Assembly (NCBI GenBank): GCA_964593285.1
Contig: CAZQHZ010000001.1
Coordinates: 66,124 to 116,998 of the forward strand
Length of the DNA: 50,875 bases
DNA from: an uncultured Methanosarcinales archaeon
GTDB taxonomy: Archaea > Nanobdellota > Nanobdellia > Woesearchaeales > DSVV01
Direction of reading: 5' to 3'
Shown: positions 4,653 through 48,126 of the stretch, one piece after another
Position numbering within the stretch: position 1 is the first letter of the stretch
Layout of the letters: each line of letters opens with the position of its first letter
Notes under the pieces: model-generated
What the model saw: the letters and a program-made list of their open reading frames with translations, nothing else
The model's database searches: none
What the model was told of the DNA's origin: nothing
Translations under genes and position numbers: made by a program

Positions 4653-4673
4653 TTTTTTTAATTTTTTTCTTTA

Positions 4674-4754
4674 ATTTTTTAAACTTCACTAATATACAAA
4701 TGTCCAGAAAAATCTCTTAGCACAATACGTCCTTGCTTGTTATTAATTTTATTT
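4674..4754 (-). repeat. Displaced copy of the 3' end of the MtrA-ThyA gene (putative att site, left island boundary)
   Basis: 73/81 nt identical to 17191..17271 in direct orientation. The minus strand reads NKINNKQGRIVLRDFSGHLYISEV* against NKINKKRGHIVLTDFSGHLYMSEV* in the gene. Confidence 0.92.
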
Positions 4755-5057: not shown

Positions 5058-5106
5058 ATTTTATAGTAAATTTTTTATACTTTAAATATACTTTCATAAA
5101 AATAAT

Positions 5107-5658
5107 ATGGAAAATCCAATAAAACTTACTGAAAATGAAAAAAAAGTTCTCAAGAAATTAATTTGTGATAGTAGGATGAATGATACAAAAATTGCAGAAA
5201 GTAATTCTATTTCTCAACAAGCAGTATATCAAATAAGAAACAGATTAGAAAGTTTAGGAATAATTGAGGGGTACTGTCCAATAATTAATTTTAAAAAAAT
5301 TGGCTTAAATATAATGTATATAATTGGAATAGAAATTTTGCCCTATATGTGGGAAGAATTTAAAGAACATGAAATTACAGAAAAACTCAAAGATTTACCT
5401 TTTGTTTTAAAACTTATAAGATTGCCTTCTACAGATGTTTCATATATTGCAATTCTTGGATTTAAAGATATAAAAGATCGAGAACTGTTTTCAAGTAAAA
5501 TAGAATCCAAATTTTCTAAAAAAATAAATATTGTCTGGTCCTATACAACTTATTCTGAAAATTATATGGGAAAAAATAAATTAAGTAGTATAGATTATGC
5601 TCTTAATAAGAACGAATTAGATTTTGATAAAATAATTGATAAAATTAATAAAAAATAA
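5107..5658 (+). CDS. Lrp/AsnC family transcriptional regulator
   Basis: LTENEKKVLKKL..DSRM..TKIA..ISQQAVYQIRNRLESLGIIEGY..INFKKIG HTH, followed by a RAM-like domain. Confidence 0.85.
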   Translation: MENPIKLTENEKKVLKKLICDSRMNDTKIAESNSISQQAVYQIRNRLESLGIIEGYCPIINFKKIGLNIMYIIGIEILPYMWEEFKEHEITEKLKDLPFVLKLIRLPSTDVSYIAILGFKDIKDRELFSSKIESKFSKKINIVWSYTTYSENYMGKNKLSSIDYALNKNELDFDKIIDKINKK

Positions 5659-5661
5659 AAA

Positions 5662-5949
5662 TTATTCTCTTATATAATAACCAAAAATTGTATCTCTCAT
5701 TAAAGTACCTCGAACAAGCACTTCTTCACCTTCATCAGGAATATCATCAGAAACTACACCTATTTTTTCATCATCATCAACAATTAAATAACCTGAAAAA
5801 TCTCCAATGTCTACAGATCCTTCTACTATACCTCTAACACTTACTCTTTCACCAATATACTCTTCACTTTTTATATCTTCAATATTTTGAGTAGCACACC
5901 CAGCCAATAAAACAAACAAAAATAAAAAAATAATAAAATATATTTTCAT
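5662..5949 (-). CDS. Small lipoprotein with OB-fold
   Basis: Lipobox LLAGC; GERVSVRGIV and GEEVLVRGTL strands; GGAGG ribosome-binding site. Confidence 0.7.
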   Translation of the reverse strand: MKIYFIIFLFLFVLLAGCATQNIEDIKSEEYIGERVSVRGIVEGSVDIGDFSGYLIVDDDEKIGVVSDDIPDEGEEVLVRGTLMRDTIFGYYIRE

Positions 5950-5971
5950 TTTATACCTCCAAAATAATTTT

Positions 5972-6169
5972 TTATTTATTTACTGCAAAATAAATCATAT
6001 ATATAGCTGAAAGTCCGACAAGTACATATACAATATTTTGTAATGTAGGTATTGTTCCAAAGATTGCTTCAACAAAATCAAAATTAAAAAATCCTACAAG
6101 ACCCCAATTTAATCCACCAACTATTACTAAAACTAACGTTATCCAATCTAATGTATTTTTATTTGTCAT
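5972..6169 (-). CDS. DUF378 small membrane protein
   Basis: LVIVGGLNWGLVGFFNFDFV..IFG and IVYVLVGLSA signature. Confidence 0.88.
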   Translation of the reverse strand: MTNKNTLDWITLVLVIVGGLNWGLVGFFNFDFVEAIFGTIPTLQNIVYVLVGLSAIYMIYFAVNK

Positions 6170-6216
6170 AATATCCCCTCCGTTTTTAACGCGTAAAAAA
6201 TCATTTTACGCAAAAA

Positions 6217-6468
6217 TTAAGATTTTAAAATAGTCATCAATTTAGATGTTTCTTTTGTAACATTTACATTTTGAAAACTGCCATCTTCACGATGAACTAT
6301 AACCTTGCCGTTTTCATATTTTTGAGTTATATCAAAAGCATGTGCTATAGCATTCATTTTTAAATCAAATATTTTAGATGGTTGTTCGCTATTTTCGGCT
6401 CTAACACCCCATCTCCCATCAGATGGTACAACGTGTTGTATTTTTGTTTCAACTTCTATTTTAATCAC
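6217..6468 (-). CDS. DUF2188 domain protein
   Basis: QHVVPSDGRWGVR..S..F..K..AI..A and VIVHREDGSFQ. Confidence 0.8.
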   Translation of the reverse strand: MIKIEVETKIQHVVPSDGRWGVRAENSEQPSKIFDLKMNAIAHAFDITQKYENGKVIVHREDGSFQNVNVTKETSKLMTILKS

Positions 6469-6527
6469 CTCGTATCATAGTTTATTTATATTAATTATTT
6501 ATGTAACATTAATCTTTAATAACAAAT

Positions 6528-6968
6528 TCAAGTTTTTTTTTGAGCTGCAAAATCAAATAAATTCTCAATTTCAGGTGGTAGTGTTGCTTTTATATTATTT
6601 ATTTCTCCTTGATCAATATGTTTTTGCATGACATAAAATATTGTTTGTATAACATTTTCTGGATTAATTTTAGGATCATTATTAAAATATGAATGCACCC
6701 TACTAATAAATGTCATTTTATCTAATTTTTTAGGATTATCTTTAGGAGTCCAATTATTATAATAAATTCCTTTAATAATTAGTGGAAGCTGAGCACCCAA
6801 ATGGGTGAGATTTTCAATAGTTAATCTATCTCTAAGAGTATGCATAGTTCCATAAAGGGCAATGTAAGCCTGGTTATAAGTACATTTAAGTTCATATTTT
6901 ATTTCTTTAATCCAAATATTAAAATCATGAACTCCTTTTTCTACACTACTAATATGTGAAATAGTCAT
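6528..6968 (-). CDS. DUF2267 domain protein
   Basis: AY.AL..TMHTLRDRL....HLGAQLP.IIKGIYY..W and ID.GEI..IK.TLP. ATG at 6968 follows a GGTGA ribosome-binding site. Confidence 0.85.
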   Translation of the reverse strand: MTISHISSVEKGVHDFNIWIKEIKYELKCTYNQAYIALYGTMHTLRDRLTIENLTHLGAQLPLIIKGIYYNNWTPKDNPKKLDKMTFISRVHSYFNNDPKINPENVIQTIFYVMQKHIDQGEINNIKATLPPEIENLFDFAAQKKT

Positions 6969-7010
6969 AATAATCACCTACAAATATTTTTAAAAAATAA
7001 AAAAAATTGA

Positions 7011-7667
7011 TTATATTTCTTTAATATATACATAATCAGTTTTTGAACTCAACCTTCTAATACCTCTAAAAAGCTGTGCTTTAACTGTATAAATACCTTT
7101 CATTTTAGGGATAAACTCAAATGTACGCTCCTTTAATTCGTTTGGAGCTAACGTATCTAGAGATATTAATTCTACCTCTTCTATTTCCCCATCAGGAGCC
7201 TCAATCCAAGTTTCTAAATCTAAATCTTCAGTAGCTTCTTTAGCGGATATTAAAACATCGCATTTTATTGTATCTCCTATTATTGATCTAGGATTTCTTG
7301 TAGCAAACAAACTAATAATTTCTGCTACTTGAGTAGATACATTTATTAACATATCAGGTGTTTCCCAGTAAAACAGTTCATCGTCCTTATTACCAACCAT
7401 TGATACATAAACTTGTGTTGAAAAATGCACATTTATTCTAAAATAAAGATTTACTTCATCATCTGGTAGCAACAAAGGTATATATTTAGCAAAGTCCCTA
7501 ATTTCTAAACCTAATGTATCAACAGAATTTAAATGTATATCTAAATTTTTTAATGTATTTTGGCTTATATTTTTTAAAGTTAAAGTAAGCCATCTCTCTC
7601 CAGGATCAACAACTTCTGGAGTTATTTCAAATTCTACGCCTTTTCTTATTCTTCTCATTTTTTTCAC
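7011..7667 (-). CDS. Hypothetical protein with two beta-sandwich (Ig/CARDB-like) domains
   Basis: 218-aa ORF with alternating beta-strand pattern (LTLTLKN, GIYTVKAQL); start uncertain. Confidence 0.55.
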   Translation of the reverse strand: MKKMRRIRKGVEFEITPEVVDPGERWLTLTLKNISQNTLKNLDIHLNSVDTLGLEIRDFAKYIPLLLPDDEVNLYFRINVHFSTQVYVSMVGNKDDELFYWETPDMLINVSTQVAEIISLFATRNPRSIIGDTIKCDVLISAKEATEDLDLETWIEAPDGEIEEVELISLDTLAPNELKERTFEFIPKMKGIYTVKAQLFRGIRRLSSKTDYVYIKEI

Positions 7668-7708
7668 CCCACAAAAAAATATATTGGTAATAATACATTT
7701 TGTTAAAA

Positions 7709-7874
7709 TATAAAAATTATTTCTAGTAAATTACAAAAATTAAATAAAAATATGTTGTAATTTACTGATTCTTAAAAATAAATTAGAAATAAACTTAATT
7801 ATTTTTTTGATATTTTTGTAATTTACATTTTTTTTATAGTATTCTTTTGTATAATACTAGGAATGCTTTTTATA
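7709..7874. promoter_or_regulatory. Divergent promoter with four phased GTAAWTTAC-type boxes
   Basis: Boxes at 7726, 7757, 7818 and 7849 (last is GTATAATAC), spaced 31/61/31 bp. Each outer box lies 10 bp from a TTTTATA box (7709-7715 minus, 7868-7874 plus). Confidence 0.75.
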
Positions 7875-7910
7875 AAATAAATAGCTATATTATTATTAAG
7901 GTGATTTTTT

Positions 7911-8384
7911 ATGAAAGAAACAAGTAAATCTATTTGGAAGGAAATAATGTCATTACAAAATCAAATAGATATGTTGTTTGAAAATAGTTATTTAGAAGAG
8001 TATCTTGGAGCTAGTAATTTATTAAAAAAAGGAAATATAACACCAGAAAACTATAGAAAACCTATTTCTAATATTCATGAAACAGATACCAAAATAATTG
8101 CAGAAATAGAAATGCCTGGAATGAATAAAGAGGATATAGATGTAGAAGTAGATGATAATACACTGAAAGTTAAAGCAGAAAAAAAACAAGAAATCAAGGA
8201 AAAAGATAAAAAAGAAAGTTATTCTTATAAGCGAGATTTTTTAGGATTTTATAAAAAATTTTTATTACCTGAAAATGTTGATTCACAAAAAGCTAAAGCA
8301 GAATATAACGAAGGAATATTAAAAATAAATCTTCCAAAAATTGAAATTGAAAGTTCAAAAAAAAACCGCTTAAACATAAAATGA
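7911..8384 (+). CDS. Small heat shock protein Hsp20
   Basis: P.SNIHETD...EMPGMNKEDIDV and LPENVD...AKAEYNEGILKINLPK alpha-crystallin domain. Confidence 0.95.
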   Translation: MKETSKSIWKEIMSLQNQIDMLFENSYLEEYLGASNLLKKGNITPENYRKPISNIHETDTKIIAEIEMPGMNKEDIDVEVDDNTLKVKAEKKQEIKEKDKKESYSYKRDFLGFYKKFLLPENVDSQKAKAEYNEGILKINLPKIEIESSKKNRLNIK

Positions 8385-8409
8385 TTTTTTATTTTTTTAA
8401 AAAAATAAA

Positions 8410-10140
8410 ATGAAAACCAACAAAAATATTGCAAAGCTTTTTGATGAAATGGCTATACTTTTAGAATTAGAAGGTGTTGAATGGAAACCTCAAGCTTATA
8501 GGAAAGCTTCTAGAAATATTAATAACTATTATATGGATATAAATGAAGTATATAAAAAAAAAGGTATCAAAGGTTTGCAAAAAATAAAGGGTGTAGGGGA
8601 AAATATATCTAAACACATAGAAGAATATTTGAAAACTAATCAAATTAAGAAACTTAAAGATATGAGAAAAAAATATCCTAAAGAAATAATGGATATTTCA
8701 ACACTTGAAGGTTTAGGGCCAAAAAAAATAAGATTTCTTCTACGAAAACTAAATATTAAATCTAAAAAAGATCTTGAAAATGCAGTTAAAAATAAACAAA
8801 TAAGAAATTTAGAAGGCTTTGGAGAAGTAACAGAAAAAAATATACAACAATCATTAAATCTTCATAAAAAGAAAAAAGGGAGAATGTTATTAGATCAAGC
8901 AACGAGGATATGTAATGAAATCATAAACTATCTAAAAAAAGAAACAAACATAAAAACAATTAATTATGCTGGATCTATTAGAAGAATGAAAGAAACTATA
9001 GGTGATATTGATATTTTAGCTATAAAAATAAATGCTGATAAATTAATTAATGCTTTCACAAATTTTAAAGATATAAAAAAGGTCATAAGTAAAGGACAAA
9101 CAAAAAGTTCAATAATATTAAATGAAGATAATATTCAAGTTGATTTAAGGATTATTCCAAAAGAAAGCTATATAGCGGCACTTCAATATTTTACCGGAAG
9201 TAAAGCACATAACATTGAATTAAGAAAAATTGCTTTAAGCGAGGGATATAAATTATCTGAATATGGATTATTTAAAAAAAAAGATAATAAAAAAATTTCA
9301 TTAAAAAATGAAAAAGAATTATATAAAAAATTGGGTCTACAATACATCCCTCCAGAAATTAGAGAAAACCGAGGAGAAATAGAATTAGCTAAAAATAATA
9401 AAATTCCTAAACTTATCAGACACAGTGACATTAAAGGAGATTTACATATACATACTACTTATAGCGATGGTTTAGATACTATTAAAGATATAGTAGATAA
9501 TGCAAAAAAAAAGGGCTATCGATATATAGCAATAACTGATCATTCAAAATCAAGAAAAATTGCAGGAGGACTTAGTGAAAAAAAACTTAAAGAGCAATGG
9601 AAGGAAATTGATAAAATTAAAAAAAATATAAGTATAGAAGTATTAAAAGGTGCTGAAGTAGATATATTAAAAGATGGAAAATTAGATTATTCAGATAAAA
9701 TACTAAAAAAACTTGATTTTGTAATTGGAAGCATTCATCAAAATTTCAAAATGCCAAAAAAAGATATGACAAAAAGAATAATAAAAGCACTCAAAAATGA
9801 AAATCTACATGCACTAGGGCATCTTACGGGAAGAATGATTAAAAAAAGAGAACCTTATAATGCAGATTATAACAAAATTTTTCAAGTTGCAGCAGATAAT
9901 AATAAATTAATAGAAATTAATTCACAACCACAAAGACTAGATCTTAATGACGATTTTATATATAGAGCAAAAAAAAAAGGAGTAAAATTCATAATCAATA
10001 CAGATTCTCATACAAAATCAAATTTAAATTTTATAAGATTTGGAATAGGACAAGCAAGACGTGGCCAATTGAAAAAAAGTGATGTAGTTAACACAAAATC
10101 ATTTAGCCAATTAAAAAAGGTTTTAAAAAATGAAGTATGA
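8410..10140 (+). CDS. polX: DNA polymerase X with PHP domain
   Basis: HhH motifs, GSIRR..ETIGDIDIL, QVDLR, YFTGSKAHN, PPEIRE; PHP motifs DLHIHT..SDG, ITDHS and NTDSH. Confidence 0.95.
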   Translation: MKTNKNIAKLFDEMAILLELEGVEWKPQAYRKASRNINNYYMDINEVYKKKGIKGLQKIKGVGENISKHIEEYLKTNQIKKLKDMRKKYPKEIMDISTLEGLGPKKIRFLLRKLNIKSKKDLENAVKNKQIRNLEGFGEVTEKNIQQSLNLHKKKKGRMLLDQATRICNEIINYLKKETNIKTINYAGSIRRMKETIGDIDILAIKINADKLINAFTNFKDIKKVISKGQTKSSIILNEDNIQVDLRIIPKESYIAALQYFTGSKAHNIELRKIALSEGYKLSEYGLFKKKDNKKISLKNEKELYKKLGLQYIPPEIRENRGEIELAKNNKIPKLIRHSDIKGDLHIHTTYSDGLDTIKDIVDNAKKKGYRYIAITDHSKSRKIAGGLSEKKLKEQWKEIDKIKKNISIEVLKGAEVDILKDGKLDYSDKILKKLDFVIGSIHQNFKMPKKDMTKRIIKALKNENLHALGHLTGRMIKKREPYNADYNKIFQVAADNNKLIEINSQPQRLDLNDDFIYRAKKKGVKFIINTDSHTKSNLNFIRFGIGQARRGQLKKSDVVNTKSFSQLKKVLKNEV

Positions 10141-12199
10141 AGAATTAAAAAAAAAGTTGAAAAGTAAAAATTCTATAATTAAATTTAACTCTATAAATAG
10201 TTTAAATGAAAAAGAAGCAAAAAAAGAAATGAAAGCACTTGAGGATGCAATAAATTATCATGATGAACTATATTATAAAAAAAATAAGCCAAAAATATCA
10301 GATAATACTTATGATCAATTATTTGAAAGACTTGAAAATTTAGAAAAAAAATTCCCTCAATTAAAATCAAAAAACTCTCCAACAAAAAAAATAGGTAAAG
10401 AACCAAAAACTACTTTTAAAAAAATAAAACACACAAAACCTCTTTTAAGTTTACAGGCTACAGCAAAAAAAGAAGATATAAAAGACTTTCTTAAATTCGT
10501 TAAAAAAAATACAACAAATACTAATTATATTTTAGAACCAAAATTTGATGGATTTTCTATAGAAATAATATATAAAAATGGAGTGTTTGCATATGGTGCA
10601 ACTAGAGGGGATGGATTTATAGGAGAAGATATATCAAGAAATATTAAAACTATTAAAACAATTCCAAAGAAGTTAGCTAATGATTCTATTAATTTTTTAT
10701 CAATTAGAGGAGAAGTTTTTATTAATAAAAAAGACTTTCAAATGTTAAATAAAAAAAGAATTCAAAACAATAAAAAAGAATTTTCAAATCCAAGAAATGC
10801 AGCAGTTGGCCTAATGAGGCAATTAAATTCTAAAAATGTTGAAAACATTCCATTTAAAGCAATATTTTATGAAATAATAAAAATAAAAAACCAAAAAATA
10901 AAAAACCAAAATGAAGCATTACAATATTTAAAAAAATTAAATTTTAATGTAAGCTCAAAAAATAAAATTATAAAATCCTATGAAAAAATAATTGAAAAAA
11001 TAATAAGATATTATAATAATTTTGAAAAAATTAGAGATGATTTAAACTATGAAATAGATGGAATTGTAATAAAAGTAGATGAATATAAAGAACGTGAAAA
11101 ACTTGGAAGGAGAGAGAAAAATCCAAGATGGGCAATTGCATGGAAATTTCCACCAAAGAAAGAAATAACAACATTAAAAGATATAGTAGTTCAAGTTGGA
11201 AGAACAGGAATCTTAACACCAATAGCACTTTTAAATCCTGTAAATGTTGGAGGAGTTACAATATCTAAAGCAACTCTTCACAACCAAGATTATATTCAAC
11301 AGAAAGGATTTAAAAAAGGAGATAAAGTAAAAATTTTAAGAGCTGGAGATGTTATACCAAGAGTAGATGAATTAGTAAAAAAAATTAATAAAAGCAAAAA
11401 AAAATTTAAACTTCCAAAAAAGTGTCCTGTCTGTAAATCAAATACAATTAAACAAGGAGCATATGTAATATGCCCAAATAGCTTATCATGTGATGCACAA
11501 TTAAAAGGTAGAATACAACATTTTGCATCAACTGAAGCTATGAATATAAGAGGTCTTGGAGAAAAAATAATTATTCAGTTGGTAGATAAATCATTAGTTA
11601 CAAAAATATCTGATCTATATGAACTTAAAAAAAAGGATTTTTTAAAATTAGAAGGATTTAAAAATAAATCTGCAAAAAAATTATACGAACAAATACAGAA
11701 TTCAAAAAATCCAAATCTAGATAGATTCATATATGCACTTGGTATAAGATTAGTTGGTCTTAAAAATGCAAAAGTACTTGCCCATAATTTTAAGTCCTTT
11801 GGTAGATTAATGAAAGCATCAAAGAGAGAGCTTAAAAAAATAGAAGAAATAGGAGATGAAATAACAAAGAGTGTGTTAAATTTTTTTCAAAATAAAAAAA
11901 ATAGAAATGTCATAAAAAAATTAAGAGAAAACGAAATTAAACCAAAGGAATTTAAAATTTTAAAAACTCAAAAATTAAAAAAAAAGAAATTTGTAATAAC
12001 TGGTATTTTGCGAAATTATTCAAGAAAAGAAGCAAAGGAAGAAATAGAAAAAAGAGGAGGGCATGTAACAGAAAACATTAGTAAAAATACAGATTATTTA
12101 ATCGTTGGAAAAAAACCTGGATCAAAATTAGATGATGCAAAAATAAACAATATTAAGATTATATATGAAGAAGAATTTGAAAAAATATTAAAAAAATAG
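10130..12199 (+). CDS. ligA: NAD-dependent DNA ligase
   Basis: EPKFDG adenylation motif, ATRGDG..GED, NPRNAA.G, DGIVIK, QVGRTG, RAGDVIP, Zn finger CPVC..C..C, C-terminal BRCT. Overlaps the end of polX. Confidence 0.96.
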   Translation: MKYEELKKKLKSKNSIIKFNSINSLNEKEAKKEMKALEDAINYHDELYYKKNKPKISDNTYDQLFERLENLEKKFPQLKSKNSPTKKIGKEPKTTFKKIKHTKPLLSLQATAKKEDIKDFLKFVKKNTTNTNYILEPKFDGFSIEIIYKNGVFAYGATRGDGFIGEDISRNIKTIKTIPKKLANDSINFLSIRGEVFINKKDFQMLNKKRIQNNKKEFSNPRNAAVGLMRQLNSKNVENIPFKAIFYEIIKIKNQKIKNQNEALQYLKKLNFNVSSKNKIIKSYEKIIEKIIRYYNNFEKIRDDLNYEIDGIVIKVDEYKEREKLGRREKNPRWAIAWKFPPKKEITTLKDIVVQVGRTGILTPIALLNPVNVGGVTISKATLHNQDYIQQKGFKKGDKVKILRAGDVIPRVDELVKKINKSKKKFKLPKKCPVCKSNTIKQGAYVICPNSLSCDAQLKGRIQHFASTEAMNIRGLGEKIIIQLVDKSLVTKISDLYELKKKDFLKLEGFKNKSAKKLYEQIQNSKNPNLDRFIYALGIRLVGLKNAKVLAHNFKSFGRLMKASKRELKKIEEIGDEITKSVLNFFQNKKNRNVIKKLRENEIKPKEFKILKTQKLKKKKFVITGILRNYSRKEAKEEIEKRGGHVTENISKNTDYLIVGKKPGSKLDDAKINNIKIIYEEEFEKILKK

Positions 12200-12219
12200 T
12201 TTAAAAAAAGGTGATAATT

Positions 12220-12804
12220 ATGAAAAAAGAATTTATAAAATATTTACAAAATAATGGTGTTGCATTAAATCCTAGAGTGGCTGAAGCATTTAACGCAATA
12301 AATAGAAAAGATTTCATGCTAGAAGGAGAATCTGAAATGGATATGCCATTTCCAATTGCAGGAGGACAAACAATAAGTCAGCCATATACTGTTGCATTTA
12401 TGCTCGACAAATTAGACATAAAAGAAGGAATGAAAGTATTAGATGTTGGAAGTGGAAGCGGATGGACAACAGCATTAATTGCACATATAATAGGCAAGAG
12501 AGGATATGTTGTAGGTGTTGAATTATTAGATGAACTTGTAAAATTTGGATCAAAAAATCTAAAAAAATACAACTTTAAAAATGCAGAAATTATAAAAGCA
12601 AAAAAAGACATTAAAGGCTTACCAGAAAAAGCACCATATGATAGAATACTAGTCTCGGCAGCAGCAACAACTGTTCCTGAAATATTAATTGATCAATTAT
12701 CAAAAGAAGGAATTATGCTAATTCCAGTAAATAATACTATACAACGGATAACAAAAAAAAGTCGTGAAATATGGCATGGATTTTCTTTTGTACCATTAAA
12801 GTAA
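12220..12804 (+). CDS. pcm: Protein-L-isoaspartate O-methyltransferase
   Basis: GQTISQP, VLDVGSGSGWT, APYDRILVSAA, FSFVPL. ATG at 12220 follows GGTGA. Confidence 0.93.
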   Translation: MKKEFIKYLQNNGVALNPRVAEAFNAINRKDFMLEGESEMDMPFPIAGGQTISQPYTVAFMLDKLDIKEGMKVLDVGSGSGWTTALIAHIIGKRGYVVGVELLDELVKFGSKNLKKYNFKNAEIIKAKKDIKGLPEKAPYDRILVSAAATTVPEILIDQLSKEGIMLIPVNNTIQRITKKSREIWHGFSFVPLK

Positions 12805-12856
12805 TTTACAACTTGCAAAAGGTTTTAATTATTTTTTACTAGAAATATCTTTTATA
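12801..12856 (+). promoter_or_regulatory. Island-type promoter of the PEBP gene
   Basis: GTAATTTAC at 12801; degenerate box ATTTTTTAC at 12831, then TAGAAATATC-TTTTATA. Confidence 0.65.
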
Positions 12857-12893
12857 TCGTAGAATATTAAAATAGAGAAATTAATAAATAGAG

Positions 12894-13364
12894 GTGAAAA
12901 AAATGTATAATTCAAAAAAATTAAAAATTACAATACCTGCTTATAAAAATGGAGAAGTAATACCAAAAAAATATACTTGTGATGGTGAAAATATAAACCC
13001 TAAAATAATAATAAATAATGCCCCTAAAAGTGCAGATACATTTGTATTAATATTTGATGACCCAGATGCACCAAATAATACATTTACACACTGGGTAGTA
13101 TTTAATATACCAGCACAAACAAATATTATTCTTGAAAACACAATACCTGGAATCGAAGGAGAAAATGATTTTAAGAAAACTAATTATTCAGGACCTTGCC
13201 CTCCTAGTGGAACACATAGATATTATTTCCATCTATATGCAATACAAGGAAAGTTATTGTTTAAAGAAGGAGCAAGCAGAAAAGAGATAGAGAAAAAAAT
13301 GCAAGATAAAATAATTGAAAGTGCATCTTATATGGGTAAATATGAAAGAATCAATGAAAGATAA
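12894..13364 (+). CDS. YbhB/YbcL family (PEBP/RKIP-like) protein
   Basis: IPKKYTCDG, DDPDAP..FTHWVVFNIP, YSGPCPPSGTHRYYF. The true start may be ATG 12903. Confidence 0.93.
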   Translation: MKKMYNSKKLKITIPAYKNGEVIPKKYTCDGENINPKIIINNAPKSADTFVLIFDDPDAPNNTFTHWVVFNIPAQTNIILENTIPGIEGENDFKKTNYSGPCPPSGTHRYYFHLYAIQGKLLFKEGASRKEIEKKMQDKIIESASYMGKYERINER

Positions 13365-13577
13365 ATTAATGTAATAAAATGTATGATTTATTTTAAAAAT
13401 TATTTACTAAAAAAATAAAGATGTGTAATGCAAAAAATTTAGTCAAGTAATAGAATCATCAATAGTAAATACATACATAAATAAAAAGTTTTTTTAATTA
13501 CTATATTAAAAGTATTTTCTGTTAATTTTTTTTAAAAATCTCAGCATTAAAAGTTTAGACTTTTATCAACTTTGAAA

Positions 13578-13778
13578 TTATCTTTTAAATAAGTCATTAT
13601 TTGAATTTCTACCGAAAAAATAATAAAAAATTGCAGTGATGATACTAAAAAATAGTGCTAAAACTATCCAAAAAATTTTCATCCCATTTGATAAATTTTT
13701 ATTATGTAAAAGCACATCATAAATTACCCATATCATACATATTATTGCTAGTATACTTATTATTTGTCCTATTACCAT
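13578..13778 (-). CDS. Small 2-TM protein (PLDc N-terminal-like)
   Basis: IWVIYDV......K.FW.....FF..I.AIFYYFFGR pattern. Confidence 0.7.
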   Translation of the reverse strand: MVIGQIISILAIICMIWVIYDVLLHNKNLSNGMKIFWIVLALFFSIITAIFYYFFGRNSNNDLFKR

Positions 13779-13827
13779 TTTTATCCCTAAATTTAGTATT
13801 AATTACAATTAATAAAAAAAATATTTT

Positions 13828-14013
13828 TTAAATCATCTCACCAGTATCTAATTTTTCATCTTCTTCTACTATTTCTGGTAAAATCTCTTCCTCTTCTATT
13901 ACTTCTTCGTCATCTATAAAATCATCTATTATTGAGTCTTCGGATACCTCATTTGTTTCGCAAGCTATAAGGGCTAAAAAGGATATTAATAATATTACTA
14001 TGAAATATTTCAT
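13828..14013 (-). CDS. Small acidic lipoprotein
   Basis: Signal peptide ending LIAC, then a D/E-rich tail; ATGA overlap with the upstream gene. Confidence 0.65.
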   Translation of the reverse strand: MKYFIVILLISFLALIACETNEVSEDSIIDDFIDDEEVIEEEEILPEIVEEDEKLDTGEMI

Positions 14014-14900
14014 TGTAAGCCACCTCTATTTGGTATTTTTTTATCTAAACCTTTTATTCTTTCACTAATGTTTTGTTTTACATCATCAGGTAATCTATCC
14101 TTTACTTCTTTTATTCTCTTTCTTGCTTTCTCTGTTATATCTTCTAAAACTTCTTCTTTTATTCTATTGACATTTTCTTTTGCATTCGTTTCTTGTTTTG
14201 TTGCTTCATCTCGCATGTTTGCTAATACTTCATTAGCTTGTTCATCTCTAACTTCTCTTACTAAATTCATGACCTCTCCTCTTATTTCTTGAGGTTCTAT
14301 TTCTTTGTTTCTTATTCTTTCAACTAAGTTTTCGCTAACAATTCCTTGAGCTTGTAAGTTTCTTCTGACTGTTTCTTCGTTGTGTGCCATAGCTTTTTCA
14401 TTTATGTTTTCTTGATATCTTGTAGCTACAATAGATTCTTGTGCTCGTTCATCTGCCACATTCCTAACTACTAAAACTTCATCTCCATCCACAATTATTC
14501 TAGCAGTATCTCTAAATTCTTTAGTTAGTGCTGATGCTTCTTGTTTAAAACTCATAAATGCTTCAATATTTTCTTCTCTTTCTGCTATTTCATATGTTGA
14601 TACTTCCTCTTTTAAATCTATTAAACTTATAAGAATTGCTTCTAGTTCGTCAATGGTTGGTTGAGTAACTTCTTCCTCAATATATTCAAGCACTGTTTCA
14701 CCTTTTATTATATTCATGTGTATTGCTCTTTCGAGTTGTAACAACCTCATTTCTGCACCAGGATTTGTTTCAAAAGGCATTATTTCCTTTACATCTATTT
14801 CTTGTTCAACTTCATTTGTTATATCTGGTTGTGCCATGGTTAATGGCAAAACTGATAATAAAGCAAAAACCACAATAAATGGTTTGATTATATTTTTCAT
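14010..14900 (-). CDS. Secreted acidic coiled-coil protein
   Basis: From ATG 14900 (GGTGA upstream): signal peptide MKNIIKPFIVVFALLSVLPLTMA, then an E/K/R-rich helical sequence. Confidence 0.7.
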   Translation of the reverse strand: MKNIIKPFIVVFALLSVLPLTMAQPDITNEVEQEIDVKEIMPFETNPGAEMRLLQLERAIHMNIIKGETVLEYIEEEVTQPTIDELEAILISLIDLKEEVSTYEIAEREENIEAFMSFKQEASALTKEFRDTARIIVDGDEVLVVRNVADERAQESIVATRYQENINEKAMAHNEETVRRNLQAQGIVSENLVERIRNKEIEPQEIRGEVMNLVREVRDEQANEVLANMRDEATKQETNAKENVNRIKEEVLEDITEKARKRIKEVKDRLPDDVKQNISERIKGLDKKIPNRGGLQ

Positions 14901-14960
14901 TTTTTTCACCTCACTAAAAATATTAAATAATATGTAATGATATAACATATGTTGTTTAAC

Positions 14961-14992
14961 TATAAAAGGGTTATTTAGTAAATTACAAGATT
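14961..14992 (-). promoter_or_regulatory. Island-type promoter (box 10 bp from TATA)
   Basis: Plus strand reads TATAAAA-GGGTTATTTA-GTAAATTAC (box at 14978). Confidence 0.7.
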
Positions 14993-15037
14993 TAAACAAA
15001 ATAAATTGTAAACCACGATTATTTTAATTGTTAAAAT

Positions 15038-15262
15038 TTATTTTTTTACCCAATTATTTCCTTGTTTAGTATATTTTTGTTTAACTGCTGACCAAGCAAC
15101 TTTATGTGCAACTTCTTCTCTAGAAGCGTTTCCTTTTCTATCTTCTGGATTTTTATATTGTTCCCATGCGTTATTATAAGCTTCTTTGTATATTTTTTGA
15201 GCATCTATTGGTAAATTATTTTTTACTAATTTTGGCAAATCTGATTCTTTTTTATAAGGCAT
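15038..15262 (-). CDS. chaB: ChaB family protein
   Basis: MPY....DLP..VK..LP..AQ.IYKEAYNNAWEQY...REEVAHKVAWSAVKQKY.K....W. Confidence 0.93.
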   Translation of the reverse strand: MPYKKESDLPKLVKNNLPIDAQKIYKEAYNNAWEQYKNPEDRKGNASREEVAHKVAWSAVKQKYTKQGNNWVKK

Positions 15263-15325
15263 TTTGATTCCTCATTTTAATATAATTAATAAAAAATTAA
15301 TTTTTAAGTTAATTTTTTACATTAC

Positions 15326-16450
15326 TTATTTGTTTTTATATTTACTTTCAAGTTGATTTTTTAATTTTTCAAATGATTTTCTAATTGCTATCATAATTTC
15401 CCAATCATCATCTTCTGAGGTTATTATAGCTCCTGGATAACTTAATTTACTAAAAACTTGAAATCTGCTTTTATTTCCTTCTTTTTGATGTTCTTTTATG
15501 TGTATATTAATTTTGAAAATATTTTTAAAATAATATTGTAATTTTTCAGCATAGTTTTCTACTGTGTTTTGAATATTTTTGGTCATTGTTTCATCTAAAT
15601 TGAGTTCTTTTAATCCTTTATAAAAAATATTACTTTGTTTGATTTTAAATATTTCAATTATAGATTTTAATGTTTGTTTAAGGTTAATTATACCTATATT
15701 TTTATTTGATGAATTTTTGACTAAAAGATTATAAGACTTTGTTTTTGAAAATAATTTTAAAACTTCATTAAATTTTGCATCTTTTTTTATTTTGTTTATA
15801 TTAGGTTCAATAAAATTTTCAATACTTAGTTTTTTTATATCTTTTAATTCTGTCTGATGAGTTTTTATAGGTGTATTTGGTACTTCTCCATGTTGTCTTT
15901 CAGTTATATGTTTTAGTATAAAATTTTTTAAAAGGTTTATAGTTGATATAGTTCCTATTATTTCTCCTTTATTTTCAACATATACTTCTCTAACTTTATT
16001 AATGTTCATAAAATGAATAACTTCTCCTAAAGTTGCACTCTGTTTTATTGTTACTAATCTATCAACGATATCATTTATTTTAAGTTTTAATTTAGGATTA
16101 TCTTTTAATAAATTGAATAATTCATACACATCAACAAATTTAATTAAATTATCTTTATCAAAGACTGGAAGAATAATTGAATTACTATCAATAAATTTTT
16201 GTGTAATTACAATTAAATTATCATCAAGATTTACTTTTGATACTGGTATTATAAACTGTTTTATTTTTGTTTTATTAGCACTTGGTCTTGAATTTAATAA
16301 TAAAAAATGTGATAGGTTTCCTTGTAACTCTTCAATATACACTTCACTAGCATTATTTTTTTTAAGCCTACCTATCACTTTTGAAACTATTTCTTCTTTC
16401 TTAGTACAAATTACAATTAAGCTCTCTTTCATATCTTTTGCGTTAATCAT
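15326..16450 (-). CDS. CBS-domain protein with C-terminal HPF/RaiA(S30AE)-like domain
   Basis: Four degenerate CBS repeats. C-terminal ~100 aa (YKGL..D..M..NI...VE.YAEKL..YF....INIHIKEH....RFQV..KL.YPG.II..EDDDWE...AI..SFEKL..QL) match the HPF pattern. Confidence 0.72.
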   Translation of the reverse strand: MINAKDMKESLIVICTKKEEIVSKVIGRLKKNNASEVYIEELQGNLSHFLLLNSRPSANKTKIKQFIIPVSKVNLDDNLIVITQKFIDSNSIILPVFDKDNLIKFVDVYELFNLLKDNPKLKLKINDIVDRLVTIKQSATLGEVIHFMNINKVREVYVENKGEIIGTISTINLLKNFILKHITERQHGEVPNTPIKTHQTELKDIKKLSIENFIEPNINKIKKDAKFNEVLKLFSKTKSYNLLVKNSSNKNIGIINLKQTLKSIIEIFKIKQSNIFYKGLKELNLDETMTKNIQNTVENYAEKLQYYFKNIFKINIHIKEHQKEGNKSRFQVFSKLSYPGAIITSEDDDWEIMIAIRKSFEKLKNQLESKYKNK

Positions 16451-16465
16451 TTTTTATTTCAACGT

Positions 16466-16828
16466 TTATCTTCTTGCAACTGTTAAAATTGCTTTTATTG
16501 CAACTATTGCTGTAGCTGGTGCTATAAAAACATTTAATAGACTAAAAAATGTCGGTATTGCAGTCCATCCAAAAGCTAAATTATTAAGAATTGAACTTAA
16601 TGCTTGAAAACTTAATAAAAAAGCAATAGCTCCAATTAAGAATGTTTTTACTTCACTGGTTGCAATGTTTATTAAACCCACTAAAATACCCAATATTGCA
16701 ATAGTATAAATTGACCAAACAGGTACAACTGTTGCACTAAATAGTGCAATAACTATAGCTAATACTAATCCAACAATAAAAGATATTCTTCCAATCATAG
16801 AAATTTTTTTTTTATTGTATATACTCAT
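16466..16828 (-). CDS. Small 4-TM membrane protein
   Basis: Four hydrophobic helices, GILVGLINI...E...FL motif. ATG 16828 follows GAGGTGA. Confidence 0.7.
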   Translation of the reverse strand: MSIYNKKKISMIGRISFIVGLVLAIVIALFSATVVPVWSIYTIAILGILVGLINIATSEVKTFLIGAIAFLLSFQALSSILNNLAFGWTAIPTFFSLLNVFIAPATAIVAIKAILTVARR

Positions 16829-16866
16829 TTTAATTTTCACCTCAATATATAAACAATAGTTTATTA

Positions 16867-16923
16867 TATAAAAAAGATTTCTAGTAATTTACAAAAATAA
16901 AATAATATTTTTTAGTAAATTAC
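16867..16923 (-). promoter_or_regulatory. Island-type promoter with two boxes 31 bp apart
   Basis: TATAAAAAAGATTTCTAGTAATTTACAAAAAT (16867-16898) is nearly identical to 7709-7740; second box GTAAATTAC at 16915. Confidence 0.75.
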
Positions 16924-17195
16924 TATATCATATAATTTAGAAAATTTTAGATAGCATTTATTTTATAAAATTCTCATATTTTTTTAAGGTTATTTTTTAA
17001 ATTAAAAATTTTTTATAAAAATTATTTTATTTGCATATTAGATAATTTAATGTAAGCTATTTAAATTAATCTTTTATATTAATTAATAAATGTATTCAAA
17101 ATACAGAATATAAAAGATAATTAACATAATTTAAAAAATATTAACTTTTTAATTATTTATAATTTAAATTAAATATTAAAAGAAGTATTTATTTT

Positions 17196-18539
17196 TTAAA
17201 CTTCACTCATATATAAATGTCCAGAAAAATCTGTTAGCACAATATGTCCTCTTTTTTTATTAATTTTATTTGCAATATATTTTTGCAGGGTTGCAAGTGC
17301 ATATAAATTTAAAACAAACGCTCCTTCACCTTCAATTAATTTACCATCCTTTGTAATTGTTGCAAGATGGTGGCTTCTAAAAACAACATGCATTTCAAGT
17401 TTATTATCTCTAATTACCAGCCAAATAAAATTTAAACATGGTGGATTTTCATTTTCTAAATCATTTATTGGATCCCATAAACTTATAATACAGCGTCTTG
17501 TATTCTTATCCTTTTTTAAAACATTTATTGCTTTTTTTACTTGATTTCCCCATTTTTTAAAAATTCTATCATGATATGTATAAATAAAATCATTTTCGTT
17601 TTTTCCATTCATAAATTCATCAACATAATTTTCAATATATTCTTTTGAAAATTCTTTTGGAATTACTTTTAGTGCATCTTTTATTACAACGCTAAAACTT
17701 CTAGATTCCATTGTAATTATATTTCGTTGATCTTTAAACATAACTCCATTTTCATAAATAAATGCAGTAATCATTTCAAGTGCATCTTTTAGATTTTCTG
17801 CATTAACTTTTTGGCCAATAGGTAATTTTGAATATTTTTGAATAAATTTTACCTTTTTTGTAGTATTTGATAAATCTAAATTATATTGATTAAAAAATCT
17901 TGCACCATCATCATATAATAAATTATTCTTAATAACATTAGAATAAAATCCAAACTTGTCTAAAACTTTTTTTGCATTATTTGGTTCTTGAATTAATGAT
18001 TTAATTAATTCTTCTGCTTCTTTTAAATTTTTATTAGGATTAATATTTTTATAAACAACTAAATCACATTGTTTTCTAATTCTTTTAATTGCTGTTTTTG
18101 TAACTTGTGAAAATTTAGGATTTTGTGCTTTTGAATTTATAATTATATTGTTTTCATCAACACCAAATTTCCAAAAATTAGTTATTGCATCAACTAATAA
18201 ATGCCCATTGTCTTTATTATCAAATACAAATAAAACTAGTTTATTTACATTAGGATTTTTTAAAATATTAGAAAAGACATATTTTGTGCCATTTGTGGTT
18301 TTCCAGTAACCAGTTAAATATGCATAATTTGATATTTTTAAAAAAAAATCTTTAATTATTTTTGGTGGTTTATCAGTTTTCCAATTATAAATAAAACCTA
18401 TTGCAATATTAGATAAAAAATTCCCAACAATAACATCTTCACTATTAAAAAATTCTAAACAATGCTCATTTTTTGTTGGTTTTATTTTATAAATTTCTTT
18501 TTTTTGATATTTATCATAGCCAATTTTTATTTTTTCCAT
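17196..18539 (-). CDS. MtrA-like domain fused to an archaeal-type thymidylate-synthase domain
   Basis: N-terminal DVIVGN..SNIAI..G.WKT.NG...V.SNILKNPNV..L......GH......FGVD....II......F......AIKR.RKQ follows the MtrA pattern. C-terminal YTYHDRI, NQV, TRRC, LWDP, PPCL, FRSH and SGHLY follow ThyA. Confidence 0.8.
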   Translation of the reverse strand: MEKIKIGYDKYQKKEIYKIKPTKNEHCLEFFNSEDVIVGNFLSNIAIGFIYNWKTDKPPKIIKDFFLKISNYAYLTGYWKTTNGTKYVFSNILKNPNVNKLVLFVFDNKDNGHLLVDAITNFWKFGVDENNIIINSKAQNPKFSQVTKTAIKRIRKQCDLVVYKNINPNKNLKEAEELIKSLIQEPNNAKKVLDKFGFYSNVIKNNLLYDDGARFFNQYNLDLSNTTKKVKFIQKYSKLPIGQKVNAENLKDALEMITAFIYENGVMFKDQRNIITMESRSFSVVIKDALKVIPKEFSKEYIENYVDEFMNGKNENDFIYTYHDRIFKKWGNQVKKAINVLKKDKNTRRCIISLWDPINDLENENPPCLNFIWLVIRDNKLEMHVVFRSHHLATITKDGKLIEGEGAFVLNLYALATLQKYIANKINKKRGHIVLTDFSGHLYMSEV

Positions 18540-31168: not shown

Positions 31169-32047
31169 ATGGTAAAAAAGAGGTTAAATAAATTTCAATT
31201 ATACTTTAATAATCATTTAAAATATTTTAATAATAGTTTAAAATTAAAAAAAAATTTTTTTAAAGCAGTTTTTTTTGATTTTTTATTCTATTTATCATTT
31301 TTTTTACTATTATTTGTATTTGTTCAATTAATTTTAGTTCCAAATGTTAACTTAGTTTCTGATGCAGAAGTATTGATGAGTAAATTACTTGAAAATCCAG
31401 ATGAAGTAGATAAAGAAAGAATGGATGAAATACTAAAAGATATACAGTTTTTTAAAATTTTATTATTTATAATTATAATAAGTTTTATAATCGTATTTTT
31501 TTTAACAAAAAGCTTAAAATGGTTTTCACTTACAAACAAAAGAAATTATAAAAAAAATTATTTTAAGTATTTTTTATATTACATTTTACTTAGTTTGATT
31601 TTATTATTTTTATTCATGTTATTATTTTTTATATTAGGAATTTTAATAATTGGAATATCTTTTTTTATGTATTTGTTTTTCAATTTTGAAATTTATTTAG
31701 AATCTTTAGCAAGTTTAATTTCATTAATAACAATAATTGTCTATTTTTATTTTGCATTCATTTTTAGATTATATTTAGATAAAAAAAATTTTTTGTCAAA
31801 TGTAAAAAAGGCTTTCATTATTTCATTTAAAAAAATGCATTATTTTATACCTATATATTTATTATTTTTAATTATATTATTTATATTAATGATTATTTTT
31901 AATATAATATCTATTTCAATATTGGGATTGCATCATTATATTAGAATACCACTTTTGTTGTTTATTATTTTATTTTTTTTATTTATTATAACATATTTTA
32001 AAAATTATTTTAATCAAATTGTTTTAGATTATAAAAATGAGAAGTAA
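31169..32047 (+). CDS. Polytopic membrane protein (about 6 TM)
   Basis: F/I/L-rich helices with basic loops; overlaps the next gene. Confidence 0.75.
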   Translation: MVKKRLNKFQLYFNNHLKYFNNSLKLKKNFFKAVFFDFLFYLSFFLLLFVFVQLILVPNVNLVSDAEVLMSKLLENPDEVDKERMDEILKDIQFFKILLFIIIISFIIVFFLTKSLKWFSLTNKRNYKKNYFKYFLYYILLSLILLFLFMLLFFILGILIIGISFFMYLFFNFEIYLESLASLISLITIIVYFYFAFIFRLYLDKKNFLSNVKKAFIISFKKMHYFIPIYLLFLIILFILMIIFNIISISILGLHHYIRIPLLLFIILFFLFIITYFKNYFNQIVLDYKNEK

Positions 32048-40281: not shown

Positions 40282-41652
40282 TTAATTCCACCACCAATCT
40301 CGATTATTAGTAGAATTATGATATATTTGTGTTTTTGATTTTACAAATTTCATTAATCTTGAAGAGGATGAAGGAATGCTTGAATTTTTCCATCCTTGAA
40401 AATATTCTCCACCAACTAATGGGATATTTGAATCATTTACCCATATAATTCCTACATCTAATTGATTTGCATATTCTTTAGCTTTTTTAATATCTTTGGT
40501 CCAAATACTAGCACCAAGTCCATATTTTGTAGAATTAGAATAAATAATTGATTCTTTATCTGATTTTGTAATAATTATTGAAACAACAGGTCCAAAAATT
40601 TCTTCTTTTATACTTGTATAATTATTATTATCAAGAAGCAATATTGTTGGTTCATAATAAAATCCGTCTTTTTTCATTATTTTCCCGCCAGATAATAATT
40701 TTGCACCTTCTTTAATTGTTTTTTTAACTTGCAAATCAATTTTTAAAAGTTGTTTTTTATCAATGATTGGTGTAACTTTATTTTTAATTTGATTTGTTTT
40801 TTTAATCAATTTTGGAATTAATTTTTTATTTGTTAAATAAATTCTTTTAATTTTACAGCAAACTTCTCCAGAATGTAAAAATGATCCAGAAATAACTCCA
40901 TTTATTGTTTGTTTAACATTACAATCATTAGAAATAATTGTAGCATCATTTCCAGATAATTCTAGTAAAGTTGGTTTTAAATCTGAATTTTTTTGAATTT
41001 TTTTGCCTGTTTTTATGTTTCCTGTATAAACAATATAATCAATATCTTCTTGTTTTACTAAAAATTCACCTTGTTTTTTCCCACCAATTACAATATTGAA
41101 AACATTTTTTGGCATATTTTTTGAAGAATTTATTATTTTGTGTATCAATTTTCCAACAATTGTTGATTTTTCAGAAGGTTTAAAAATAATAACATTTCCT
41201 GTAAGTAATGCTGGAATTGCACTAATCATTGTTTGCCAAAAAGGGTAATTCCATACACCAATTTGTAAAATAACACCATAAGGATGATAAGTAATATCAC
41301 AATTTGATTGAGGAAATACTTCTTGATTTAATGAAAATTTTACTTTATTTAATTTTGTATATTCTTCAATATAATAATCAAATGCATCAATTATATCATA
41401 AAATACACCTTCAATTTCTGCTTTTTCAAAACCACAGTCTAAATTTATAGTATTAATTATTTTATCTTTGTTACTAATAAAATTTTTTTTTAGTTCGTTA
41501 ATTATAAAAATTCTTTTATTTTTATCTAAATTAGACCACTTTTTAAATGCTTCTTTTGATCTTTTTATAATATTAATAATCTCTTCATTTGTATTTTCTG
41601 AATGTATTTCTATTAATTTTTTATTAGTTGGATTTATGCTTTTAATTACCAT
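40282..41652 (-). CDS. Aldehyde dehydrogenase family protein
   Basis: PYGV...WNYP, GN...FKPSE, YTG, LELSGND (Glu), GEVCC (Cys), EEIFGPV, YGLGASIW. Confidence 0.93.
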   Translation of the reverse strand: MVIKSINPTNKKLIEIHSENTNEEIINIIKRSKEAFKKWSNLDKNKRIFIINELKKNFISNKDKIINTINLDCGFEKAEIEGVFYDIIDAFDYYIEEYTKLNKVKFSLNQEVFPQSNCDITYHPYGVILQIGVWNYPFWQTMISAIPALLTGNVIIFKPSEKSTIVGKLIHKIINSSKNMPKNVFNIVIGGKKQGEFLVKQEDIDYIVYTGNIKTGKKIQKNSDLKPTLLELSGNDATIISNDCNVKQTINGVISGSFLHSGEVCCKIKRIYLTNKKLIPKLIKKTNQIKNKVTPIIDKKQLLKIDLQVKKTIKEGAKLLSGGKIMKKDGFYYEPTILLLDNNNYTSIKEEIFGPVVSIIITKSDKESIIYSNSTKYGLGASIWTKDIKKAKEYANQLDVGIIWVNDSNIPLVGGEYFQGWKNSSIPSSSSRLMKFVKSKTQIYHNSTNNRDWWWN

Positions 41653-47862: not shown

Positions 47863-48126
47863 TTAATAATAATTTTCATAACATTCTTTTGCCATTTCAA
47901 GTCTTGGACCATGTTTTGACATAACACATTTATTACCTATACTTTCAATAGAACATTCACCTAACGGAGTATTAAATTCACAAAAAACATTCTGATTTGT
48001 ATCTTTAGTTACCATAGCAGACATTTTTGTATCATTAGTTGGTGTTATAACTAAAACAAATAAGCAAAAAAATCCAATCATTATAAGTAGACTTGATAAA
48101 TAAAAATGATTTTTTTCATGATTCAT
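47863..48126 (-). CDS. Small membrane-anchored Cys-containing protein
   Basis: One TM, then four Cys (TPLGECS..KC); has its own BRE/TATA upstream. Confidence 0.6.
   Translation of the reverse strand: MNHEKNHFYLSSLLIMIGFFCLFVLVITPTNDTKMSAMVTKDTNQNVFCEFNTPLGECSIESIGNKCVMSKHGPRLEMAKECYENYY

Follow-up and report, generated by a model that had tools for sequence, protein, structure and literature searches.

The stretch of DNA treated here, the whole of which is called the window, comprises 50,875 nucleotides of contig CAZQHZ010000001.1 (forward strand, positions 66,124 to 116,998; GenBank assembly GCA_964593285.1) from an uncultured Methanosarcinales archaeon that GTDB places in the Woesearchaeales (DSVV01); the assembly amounts to 1.18 Mb in 38 contigs, is 95.9% complete and has a GC content of 22.9%. 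Within the window lies a 12.5-kb segment between direct repeats, referred to below as the island, which carries the gene of a predicted regulator of the Lrp/AsnC type, P0001 (5107-5658), and five operon promoters, P1 to P5. Under these promoters stand 16 genes, that is, all of the genes between the flanking repeats other than the regulator and a doubtful open reading frame (ORF) of 70 amino acids, and their grouping into operons is predicted from common direction and short gaps (Table 1). The read runs listed as containing positions 7001-17000 are four microbial-mat DNA runs from two studies, with no RNA run among them. The subject of this analysis is the paired palindromic box ahead of each promoter and its probable relation to the regulator.

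The original prediction held that in five island promoters a phased GTAAWTTAC box keeps a constant distance from TATA, and that the island's Lrp protein activates the whole set as one stress programme; the observation is confirmed, and the interpretation is supported by the independent comparative evidence described below. The exact box occurs eight times in the window against 0.98 expected, and none of 100 shuffles gave eight or more. Seven copies fall within 7726-16923, at 7726, 7757, 7818, 12801, 14978, 16884 and 16915, just where they had been reported, and the eighth, at 31380, lies within an ORF (31169-32047). The reported variants at 7849 (GTATAATAC) and 12831 (ATTTTTTAC) were also read in the sequence, together with a box that had been overlooked, GTGGTTTAC on the minus strand at 15008-15016, which is the distal partner of the copy at 14978. 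In all five promoters the proximal box lies exactly 10 bp from TTTTATA, and the spacing within pairs, given earlier as 30-31 bp, measures 31, 31, 30, 30 and 31 bp from P1 to P5. The common plan is TTGTA-N3-TAC, TAGAAA-N4 and TTTTATA, with a second box or half-box (TTACAA) 30-31 bp upstream. Read in promoter orientation the proximal boxes of P1 to P5 are GTAATTTAC, GTATAATAC, ATTTTTTAC, GTAATTTAC and GTAAATTAC, and the best copies form with their flanks a 13-bp palindrome, TTGTAAWTTACAA; the distal box of P3 (12801-12809) overlaps the stop codon of the protein-isoaspartate methyltransferase (PCMT) gene. The simpler pattern TTAC-N10-TTTTATA has seven matches in the window against 0.60 expected (at least seven in none of 100 shuffles), four of them island promoters and three elsewhere (9072, 27448 and 43718); P2 is missed because its box ends in ATAC. 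The site outside the island at 48147-48162, cited as a similar promoter that has no box, is indeed of that kind: it reads TAGAAATATTTTTATAT on the minus strand (48140-48170), lies upstream of an 87-amino-acid gene (47863-48126) and has a spacing one base shorter than that of the island promoters.

The sequence between box and TATA had been likened to a TFB recognition element (BRE). It is present as described, as TAGAAA in three promoters, TAGGAA in one and TAAATA in one, and it is its standing as a generic BRE that fails: among 48 TTTTATA promoters of genes led by a Shine-Dalgarno sequence only three have TAGAAA at -10 to -5, the same number as the island promoters that carry it. TAGAAA is particular to this promoter class, in which it may belong to the operator or be a class-specific TFB contact.

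Across the whole assembly the 9-mer box has 28 exact copies, by which it is ruled out as a genome-wide marker when taken singly, and the perfect 13-mer has two copies elsewhere (C18 and C19), with no TATA at the right distance. It is the composite of box, TAGAAA-like element and TATA that is specific. TACTAGRAAT with an adjacent TATA is found in the assembly at island promoters only, and a position matrix built from six sites of other genomes, with none from this one, ranks the window promoters 1, 2, 3, 4 and 6 among 2,352,832 genome positions, rank 5 being a site on contig C14 that has no TATA. Since the composite was found nowhere else in the assembly, it is both island-wide, as had been claimed, and island-only, every gene between the repeats but the two exceptions named above being preceded by one of the five promoters.

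The same composite stands beside orthologs of P0001 (41-64% identity) in other genomes, just downstream of the ortholog gene and ahead of homologues of the island genes, which answers the earlier suggestion that it be sought at homologous clusters. Of the 401 genomes sampled from the order, 51 have an ortholog at E 1e-30 or better, a tally that includes two unpublished genomes (G228 and G232) which enter no other result, and neighbourhoods of 20 kb were compared around 20 ortholog loci. A strict 26-nt pattern, GTANNNTACTAGRAANNNNWTTTATA, has six matches in three of the 401 genomes, all of them 0.03-11.2 kb from an ortholog, and its reversed control has two; a looser pattern (three mismatches or fewer, in five relatives) has five, again all beside an ortholog. 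In G402, with the closest ortholog (64%), GTAACATAC-N22-GTAATATAC-AAGAAACAAT-TTTTAAAC follows directly on the Lrp stop codon and is itself followed by PCMT, and a second composite precedes homologues of u95, ChaB and DUF2188. In G065 (48% ortholog, 39% GC) GTATATTAC-TAGAAAGTCT-ATTTATAT lies 30 bp after the gene, ahead of DUF308, PRC-barrel, ChaB, a ferritin-like protein and a disulfide reductase, and GTAATTTAC-TAGAAAGCCT-TTTTATAT lies ahead of DUF2188. In G244 (42% ortholog, 48% GC) GTAGGTTAC-TAGAAAATTT-TTTTATAG is placed 92 bp after the gene and leads into DUF2267, PEBP, DUF72, CBS-HPF, a 184-amino-acid protein, PolX and PCMT, and in G193 (about 41-46%) the gene is followed at 37 bp by a weaker composite and, further downstream, by PLDc_N, SHOCT and DUF5661. 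The 10-bp gap between box and TATA is invariant in the five window promoters and in six aligned promoters of relatives, and among these 11 an agreement of at least 8 of 11 is confined to TTAC.A in the distal box and TTGTA...TACTAGAAA...TTTTTATA, with the spacers free. Protein scans of public metagenome and genome contigs returned only L029/L030 (38-41% identity), L031 (the same contig as G402) and an irrelevant Acinetobacter match. As a separate observation, GTAATATAC-TAGAAAGTAA-ATTTATAT followed by a Shine-Dalgarno-like GAGGTGG occurs in two IMG/VR viral contigs (L074 and L081; 6001-6026; 39% GC); the viral matches comprise nine stretches, with four distinct sequences by eye, and no island homologue within 6 kb, and they are probably due to chance, though they could be promoters of this class from an archaeal virus.

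The protein encoded at 5107-5658 is Lrp/AsnC-like both in sequence (phmmer and NCBIfam) and in fold (Foldseek), in agreement with the original prediction. Its best phmmer match in the PDB is LrpA of P. furiosus (1i1g; E 1.8e-12, residues 8-132). The N-terminal helix-turn-helix is seen in Pfam, where the TrmB/HTH_24 helix-turn-helix at residues 7-54 is the only match, in model helices at 9-20, 26-32 and 37-49, and in the alignment to the corresponding region of LrpA. An AlphaFold model derived from 12 orthologs (mean pLDDT 73.6) has the beta-alpha-beta-beta-alpha-beta order of a RAM domain at 69-149, into which the phmmer alignment reaches as far as 132, and Foldseek with this model gave Lrp/AsnC/FFRP structures at all of ranks 1-35 among the matches listed, over about 145 columns; the global template modelling (TM) score reaches no more than about 0.4, as the monomer model sets the domains in a different orientation. 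The C-terminal 40 or so residues form an extra, poorly modelled segment. The recognition helix, SQQAV.QIR.RLE, is kept in the 12 orthologs, with Q38, I43 and R44 invariant. Against the NCBIfam LrpA model P0001 scores 46.6 bits where the cut-off is 250, and other Lrp/AsnC equivalogs score lower; it falls below the curated family threshold for Lrp/AsnC, and this distance marks it, by sequence, as a member of a divergent subfamily and not an equivalog of any named Lrp. It is also rare, with 15 clusters among 5.8 billion at E 1e-20; proteins of 58-68% identity (P0002, P0004 and P0005) lie on further contigs. The regulator's own promoter (5060-5107) has TTTTTATAC about 34 nt before the ATG and no Shine-Dalgarno sequence, because of which its mRNA is probably leaderless, and a half-box, TAGTAAATT, abuts its TATA. 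A second, distant Lrp/AsnC-like gene lies in the window at 41698-42168 (minus strand), encoding a protein with HTH_24 and AsnC_trans_reg (22.8 bits) that is 23% identical to P0001; it is situated upstream of an aldehyde dehydrogenase gene (40282-41652) and overlaps a 181-amino-acid ORF on the opposite strand.

Archaeal Lrp systems already described offer instructive parallels. Their sites are palindromes with an AT-rich centre, such as the 13-bp FL11 site, and neighbouring sites are set two or three helical turns from one another, facing the same side of the DNA (PMC2995911). For the activators Ptr2, LysM and Ss-LrpB a dimer site just upstream of the BRE is described, in a highly constrained position and with auxiliary sites further upstream (PMC2995911). 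The island boxes match this format, phasing and position as the original prediction had stated them: the candidate sites, TTGTA-AWT-TACAA in pairs 30-31 bp apart, are built like the published 13-15-bp Lrp palindromes (PMC2995911), the proximal one set 10 bp from TATA and the distal one 30-31 bp further up. Ptr2 of Methanocaldococcus jannaschii, an Lrp-family activator of fdxA, rb2 and rbr whose own gene overlaps with the regulatory region of its target, has likewise a pair of palindromic sites at regular spacing upstream of the promoter, the proximal one just upstream of BRE/TATA in a constrained position (PMC2995911). Unlike Ptr2, P0001 is only distantly related in sequence, has the extra C-terminal segment of about 40 amino acids and would use the operator TTGTAAWTTACAA; its putative targets are chaperone, repair, hibernation and envelope genes whereas those of Ptr2 are electron-transfer genes, and recruitment of TBP by P0001 is a prediction. 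Ss-LrpB of Sulfolobus solfataricus has a 15-bp consensus, TTGCAAAATTTGCAA (PMC4046817), and shares with the island sites the TTGYA and TRCAA half-sites around an AT-rich centre and the use of several phased sites; it activates neighbouring operons, as P0001 is predicted to do. The centre of the island site differs in being 3 bp long (a 13-bp site, as in FL11) rather than 5 bp, and no three-site autoregulatory operator was found for P0001. LrpA of P. furiosus (PDB 1i1g) and FL11/PH1519 (PDB 2e1c, a DNA complex) have the same fold, and the FL11 site is also a 13-bp palindrome (PMC2995911); P0001 differs from LrpA in the family score given above, and from both in that they are chiefly described as repressors of metabolic genes.

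Because the same box-promoter accompanies the same Lrp-type gene in distant relatives, the island's own regulator is predicted to bind the conserved operator of the five promoters and to activate them as archaeal Lrp activators do, a reading that is judged moderately probable. Activation of the Ptr2 kind is favoured because the architecture fits the published points on Lrp activators, including the layout of regulator followed by target in G402, G065 and G244. The proximal site, with its centre some 45 bp upstream of the predicted start of transcription, would be taken by one Lrp dimer that helps TBP/TFB onto the adjacent promoter; a second dimer would lie at a distance of three helical turns, facing the same side of the DNA, and the two might belong to a single higher oligomer. 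A ligand or condition sensed by the RAM domain would set the state of the regulator, and the output would be co-induction of 16 genes, with cargo for protein repair (Hsp20 and PCMT), DNA gap repair (PolX and LigA) and ribosome hibernation (CBS-HPF), along with small proteins of a general-stress type (ChaB, DUF2267, DUF2188, DUF378, PLDc_N and PEBP) and envelope proteins. The annotations of this cargo, and the variable but related cargo in relatives, point to a programme of maintenance or dormancy, and in combining alpha-crystallin, CBS and HPF-like genes the island is reminiscent of the DosR dormancy regulon of mycobacteria. The earlier view of an Lrp-activated island is supported, while binding, activation and a stress signal are predicted from sequence, and activation rather than repression, like the term stress programme, is what we infer.

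Several points weigh against this reading, which is a prediction from sequence comparison. The Pfam RAM model PF01037 gives no score on P0001 at E 0.1, yet it does score the 41698-42168 protein, and the presence of this second Lrp-like gene in the window is a caveat on the assignment of the regulator. A check for autoregulation found no convincing box upstream of the Lrp gene or of seven orthologs. At three mismatches or fewer the reversed control also has five matches, in five genomes, so that at this looseness only the location of matches is informative and not their number. Some relatives depart from the pattern: G296 (45% ortholog, with PEBP 10 kb away) has no composite in the surrounding 20 kb or genome-wide at three mismatches or fewer, G193 has none at that same limit, and most orthologs of 34-41% identity have no composite or weak matrix matches only (G409 and G381). 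The window promoters are partly paralogous (75-77% over 60-75 nt), and some of their likeness is thus due to shared descent. Finally, the TATA boxes are near-consensus.

It is this last point that makes repression or dual control the main rival, since activated promoters are often weak. Under this explanation, which is considered unlikely though still to be reckoned with, the same Lrp would act at the same boxes mainly as a repressor or dual regulator, its oligomers at the phased sites wrapping the DNA and hindering TBP/TFB until released by a signal. In its favour, archaeal Lrp proteins that repress or act both ways, and the wrapping of DNA, are described (PMC2995911), and a half-box overlaps the regulator's own TATA at about 5066-5081. 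The boxes of the five promoters, however, lie wholly upstream of TATA, overlapping neither it nor the predicted start, and the archaeal cases with sites upstream of BRE that are described in PMC2995911 and PMC4706686 are activators; TrmBL1 activates from sites upstream of BRE/TATA and represses from downstream ones (PMC4706686). Rather less probable is that the composite has another reader, whether the second Lrp-like protein at 41698-42168, some other DNA-binding protein, or the basal factors with TAGAAA as a special BRE. A second protein of the window with a helix-turn-helix and an AsnC-type domain gives this some substance, as does the conservation of TAGAAA outside the palindrome. That protein, on the other hand, has the low identity to P0001 and the aldehyde dehydrogenase neighbour already noted, and no homologue of it was found in the loci of seven relatives examined, four of which have clear composites, whereas the composite tracks P0001 orthologs across genomes. 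As for an alternative TFB or TBP, the assembly holds one gene of each, and this speaks against the idea that an alternative general factor serves a promoter class of its own. That the shared sequences are merely copies of one promoter duplicated inside the island, with no dedicated regulator, is very improbable, for although the promoter regions share 70-77% identity across 47-75 nt (repeat families D2, D5 and D8) and the two promoters of G402 are identical over about 30 nt, conservation is limited to discrete blocks with free spacers, the composite is still present where the genome has 39-48% GC and an Lrp of no more than 42-48% identity, and the box is palindromic, paired and phased.

Table 1. 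Features of the island and its borders. Positions are those of the window; distal and proximal refer to the boxes of each promoter, and operons are predicted.
Feature	Position	Strand	Details
Left direct repeat	4671-4754		Relic of last 24 codons of MtrA-ThyA-like gene; in frame, 5 amino-acid changes
Predicted regulator P0001, Lrp/AsnC (FFRP) type	5107-5658	+	183 aa; N-terminal winged helix, RAM-like domain, C-terminal extension of ~40 aa
P1 operon	5662-7658	-	ORFs, Pfam; one direction, gaps 22-59 nt
Lipoprotein-like 95-aa protein (P1)	5662-5949	-	ORF
DUF378 (P1)	5972-6169	-	Pfam
DUF2188 (P1)	6217-6468	-	Pfam
DUF2267 (P1)	6528-6977	-	Pfam
CARDB-like 215-aa protein (P1)	7011-7658	-	ESM Atlas lead only
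P1 promoter	7709-7765	-	Distal 7757-7765, proximal 7726-7734, TAGAAATAAT, TTTTATA 7709-7715; strict composite match; matrix rank 2
P2 promoter	7818-7874	+	Distal 7818-7826, proximal variant GTATAATAC 7849-7857, TAGGAATGCT, TTTTATA 7868-7874; strict composite match; matrix rank 4
P2 operon	7911-12804	+	Gaps 25, -11, 11 nt
Hsp20 (P2)	7911-8384	+	Pfam
PolX with PHP domain (P2)	8410-10140	+	Pfam; NCBIfam PolX 523 bits
NAD-dependent DNA ligase LigA (P2)	10130-12199	+	Pfam
Protein-isoaspartate methyltransferase PCMT (P2)	12211-12804	+	Pfam
P3 promoter	12801-12856	+	Distal 12801-12809, degenerate proximal ATTTTTTAC 12831-12839, TAGAAATATC, TTTTATA 12850-12856; matrix rank 6
PEBP, YbhB-type (P3)	12903-13364	+	Pfam PF01161, E 1.9e-38
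P4 operon	13578-14900	-	ORFs, Pfam; start codon from sequence
PLDc_N small membrane protein (P4)	13578-13778	-	Pfam
Lipoprotein-like 61-aa protein (P4)	13828-14013	-	ORF
Secreted 296-aa protein (P4)	14010-14900	-	ORF
P4 promoter	14961-15016	-	Distal variant GTGGTTTAC 15008-15016, proximal 14978-14986, TAAATAACCC, TTTTATA 14961-14967; matrix rank 3
P5 operon	15038-16828	-	Pfam
ChaB (P5)	15038-15262	-	Pfam
CBS + HPF/S30AE fusion (P5)	15326-16450	-	Pfam; NCBIfam yfiA 29.4 bits, below 40.9-bit cut-off
120-aa membrane protein (P5)	16466-16828	-	ORF
P5 promoter	16867-16923	-	Distal 16915-16923, proximal 16884-16892, TAGAAATCTT, TTTTATA 16867-16873; strict composite match; matrix rank 1
Right direct repeat	17188-17271		3' end of intact MtrA-ThyA-like gene 17196-18539 (minus)

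The gene content of the island has some features of its own. Hsp20, a bacterial-type PolX-PHP polymerase, a bacterial-type NAD-dependent ligase and PCMT are united in the single P2 operon, and the link between PolX and PCMT recurs in G244. The P5 operon includes CBS domains fused, in an archaeon, to a bacterial-type S30AE/HPF ribosome hibernation domain, with weak scores (28.9 and 29.4 bits); the fusion has a counterpart in G244 (L067, 7038-8219, minus strand; 32% identity) that adjoins the orthologous regulator. For the protein of 7011-7658, the first gene of P1, a Pfam scan gave no match, and the ESM Atlas pointed, as a lead only, to a likeness to CARDB-type beta-sandwich envelope proteins (feature score 0.97, structure TM 0.7-0.8). 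Outside the island a long (AAT)n/(AAC)n trinucleotide tract occupies 2870-2980, just 3' of a large ORF ending at 2678. Neither Rfam, at the gathering threshold, nor ARAGORN gave a match in the window or in L061, L062, L067 and L066, and the island does not border on a tRNA gene.

The direct repeats that flank the island are 84 nt long, 89% identical and spaced 12,517 bp apart, one of them forming the end of an intact gene, and it looks as if the 3' end of the MtrA-ThyA-like gene had served as a site of integration or recombination. The regulator is patchily distributed: its closest ortholog (64%) belongs to another family, in which only one of 18 genomes has an ortholog at E 1e-40, and within the window's own family the best identity is only 36%. 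In these respects, direct repeats at both ends with one at the 3' end of an intact gene, patchiness among relatives and a closest homologue in another family, the locus is like integrative islands at gene 3' ends; it is unlike them in that no mobility gene was found inside, there is no tRNA target and the GC content is not atypical. Against mobility it may be said that the Pfam and NCBIfam scans of the island ORFs returned no integrase or recombinase family, that the GC content of the island matches that of the surrounding DNA, and that the clusters of G065, G244 and G193 have no flanking repeats. In G402 the cluster of Lrp, PCMT, u95, ChaB and DUF2188 lies between direct repeats of about 195 nt (L061, 9703-9896 and 13429-13621; 90-94% identical), which have a GCGGAAGAAATCC motif repeated within them and gave no match to an Rfam or tRNA model, and an outer pair of 168-nt repeats in the same contig (8448-8615 and 18568-18735) is 95% identical and 10 kb apart; the edges of the island in the window bear no resemblance to these repeats. 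On this comparison a mobile cassette is plausible. It may further be proposed, tentatively and with some doubt, that the island is a portable regulon, in which an Lrp-type activator would travel with its own promoter module of box, TAGAAA and TATA and with swappable cargo between Woesearchaeales lineages, by recombination at flanking repeats and with no integrase of its own. If this were true, a recipient with a minimal genome and next to no regulators would acquire, in a single step, a dormancy or maintenance programme already wired up.

To our knowledge gene regulation in the DPANN archaea, uncultured organisms with few regulators, is almost unexplored, and among the matches listed by literature searches no paper dealt with a regulon of this kind under an Lrp protein in DPANN archaea or Woesearchaeota. 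The mechanism proposed here is already known from archaeal Lrp activators; what would be new is a divergent Lrp member with a predicted regulon of unusual content, in repair and hibernation. The locus presents a sharply defined pair of regulator and operator, a 183-amino-acid protein and a 13-bp palindrome at five promoters, and the predicted regulon is small and complete within a nearly complete assembly. The composite, whose six strict matches in the sampled genomes all lie beside the regulator, is specific enough to search metagenomes for further members. The Lrp family is usually tied to amino-acid and central metabolism, and this locus would extend it to a programme of repair and hibernation, comprising Hsp20, isoaspartate repair, PolX/LigA gap repair and an HPF-like factor, and suggests that such programmes may be exchangeable as cassettes.

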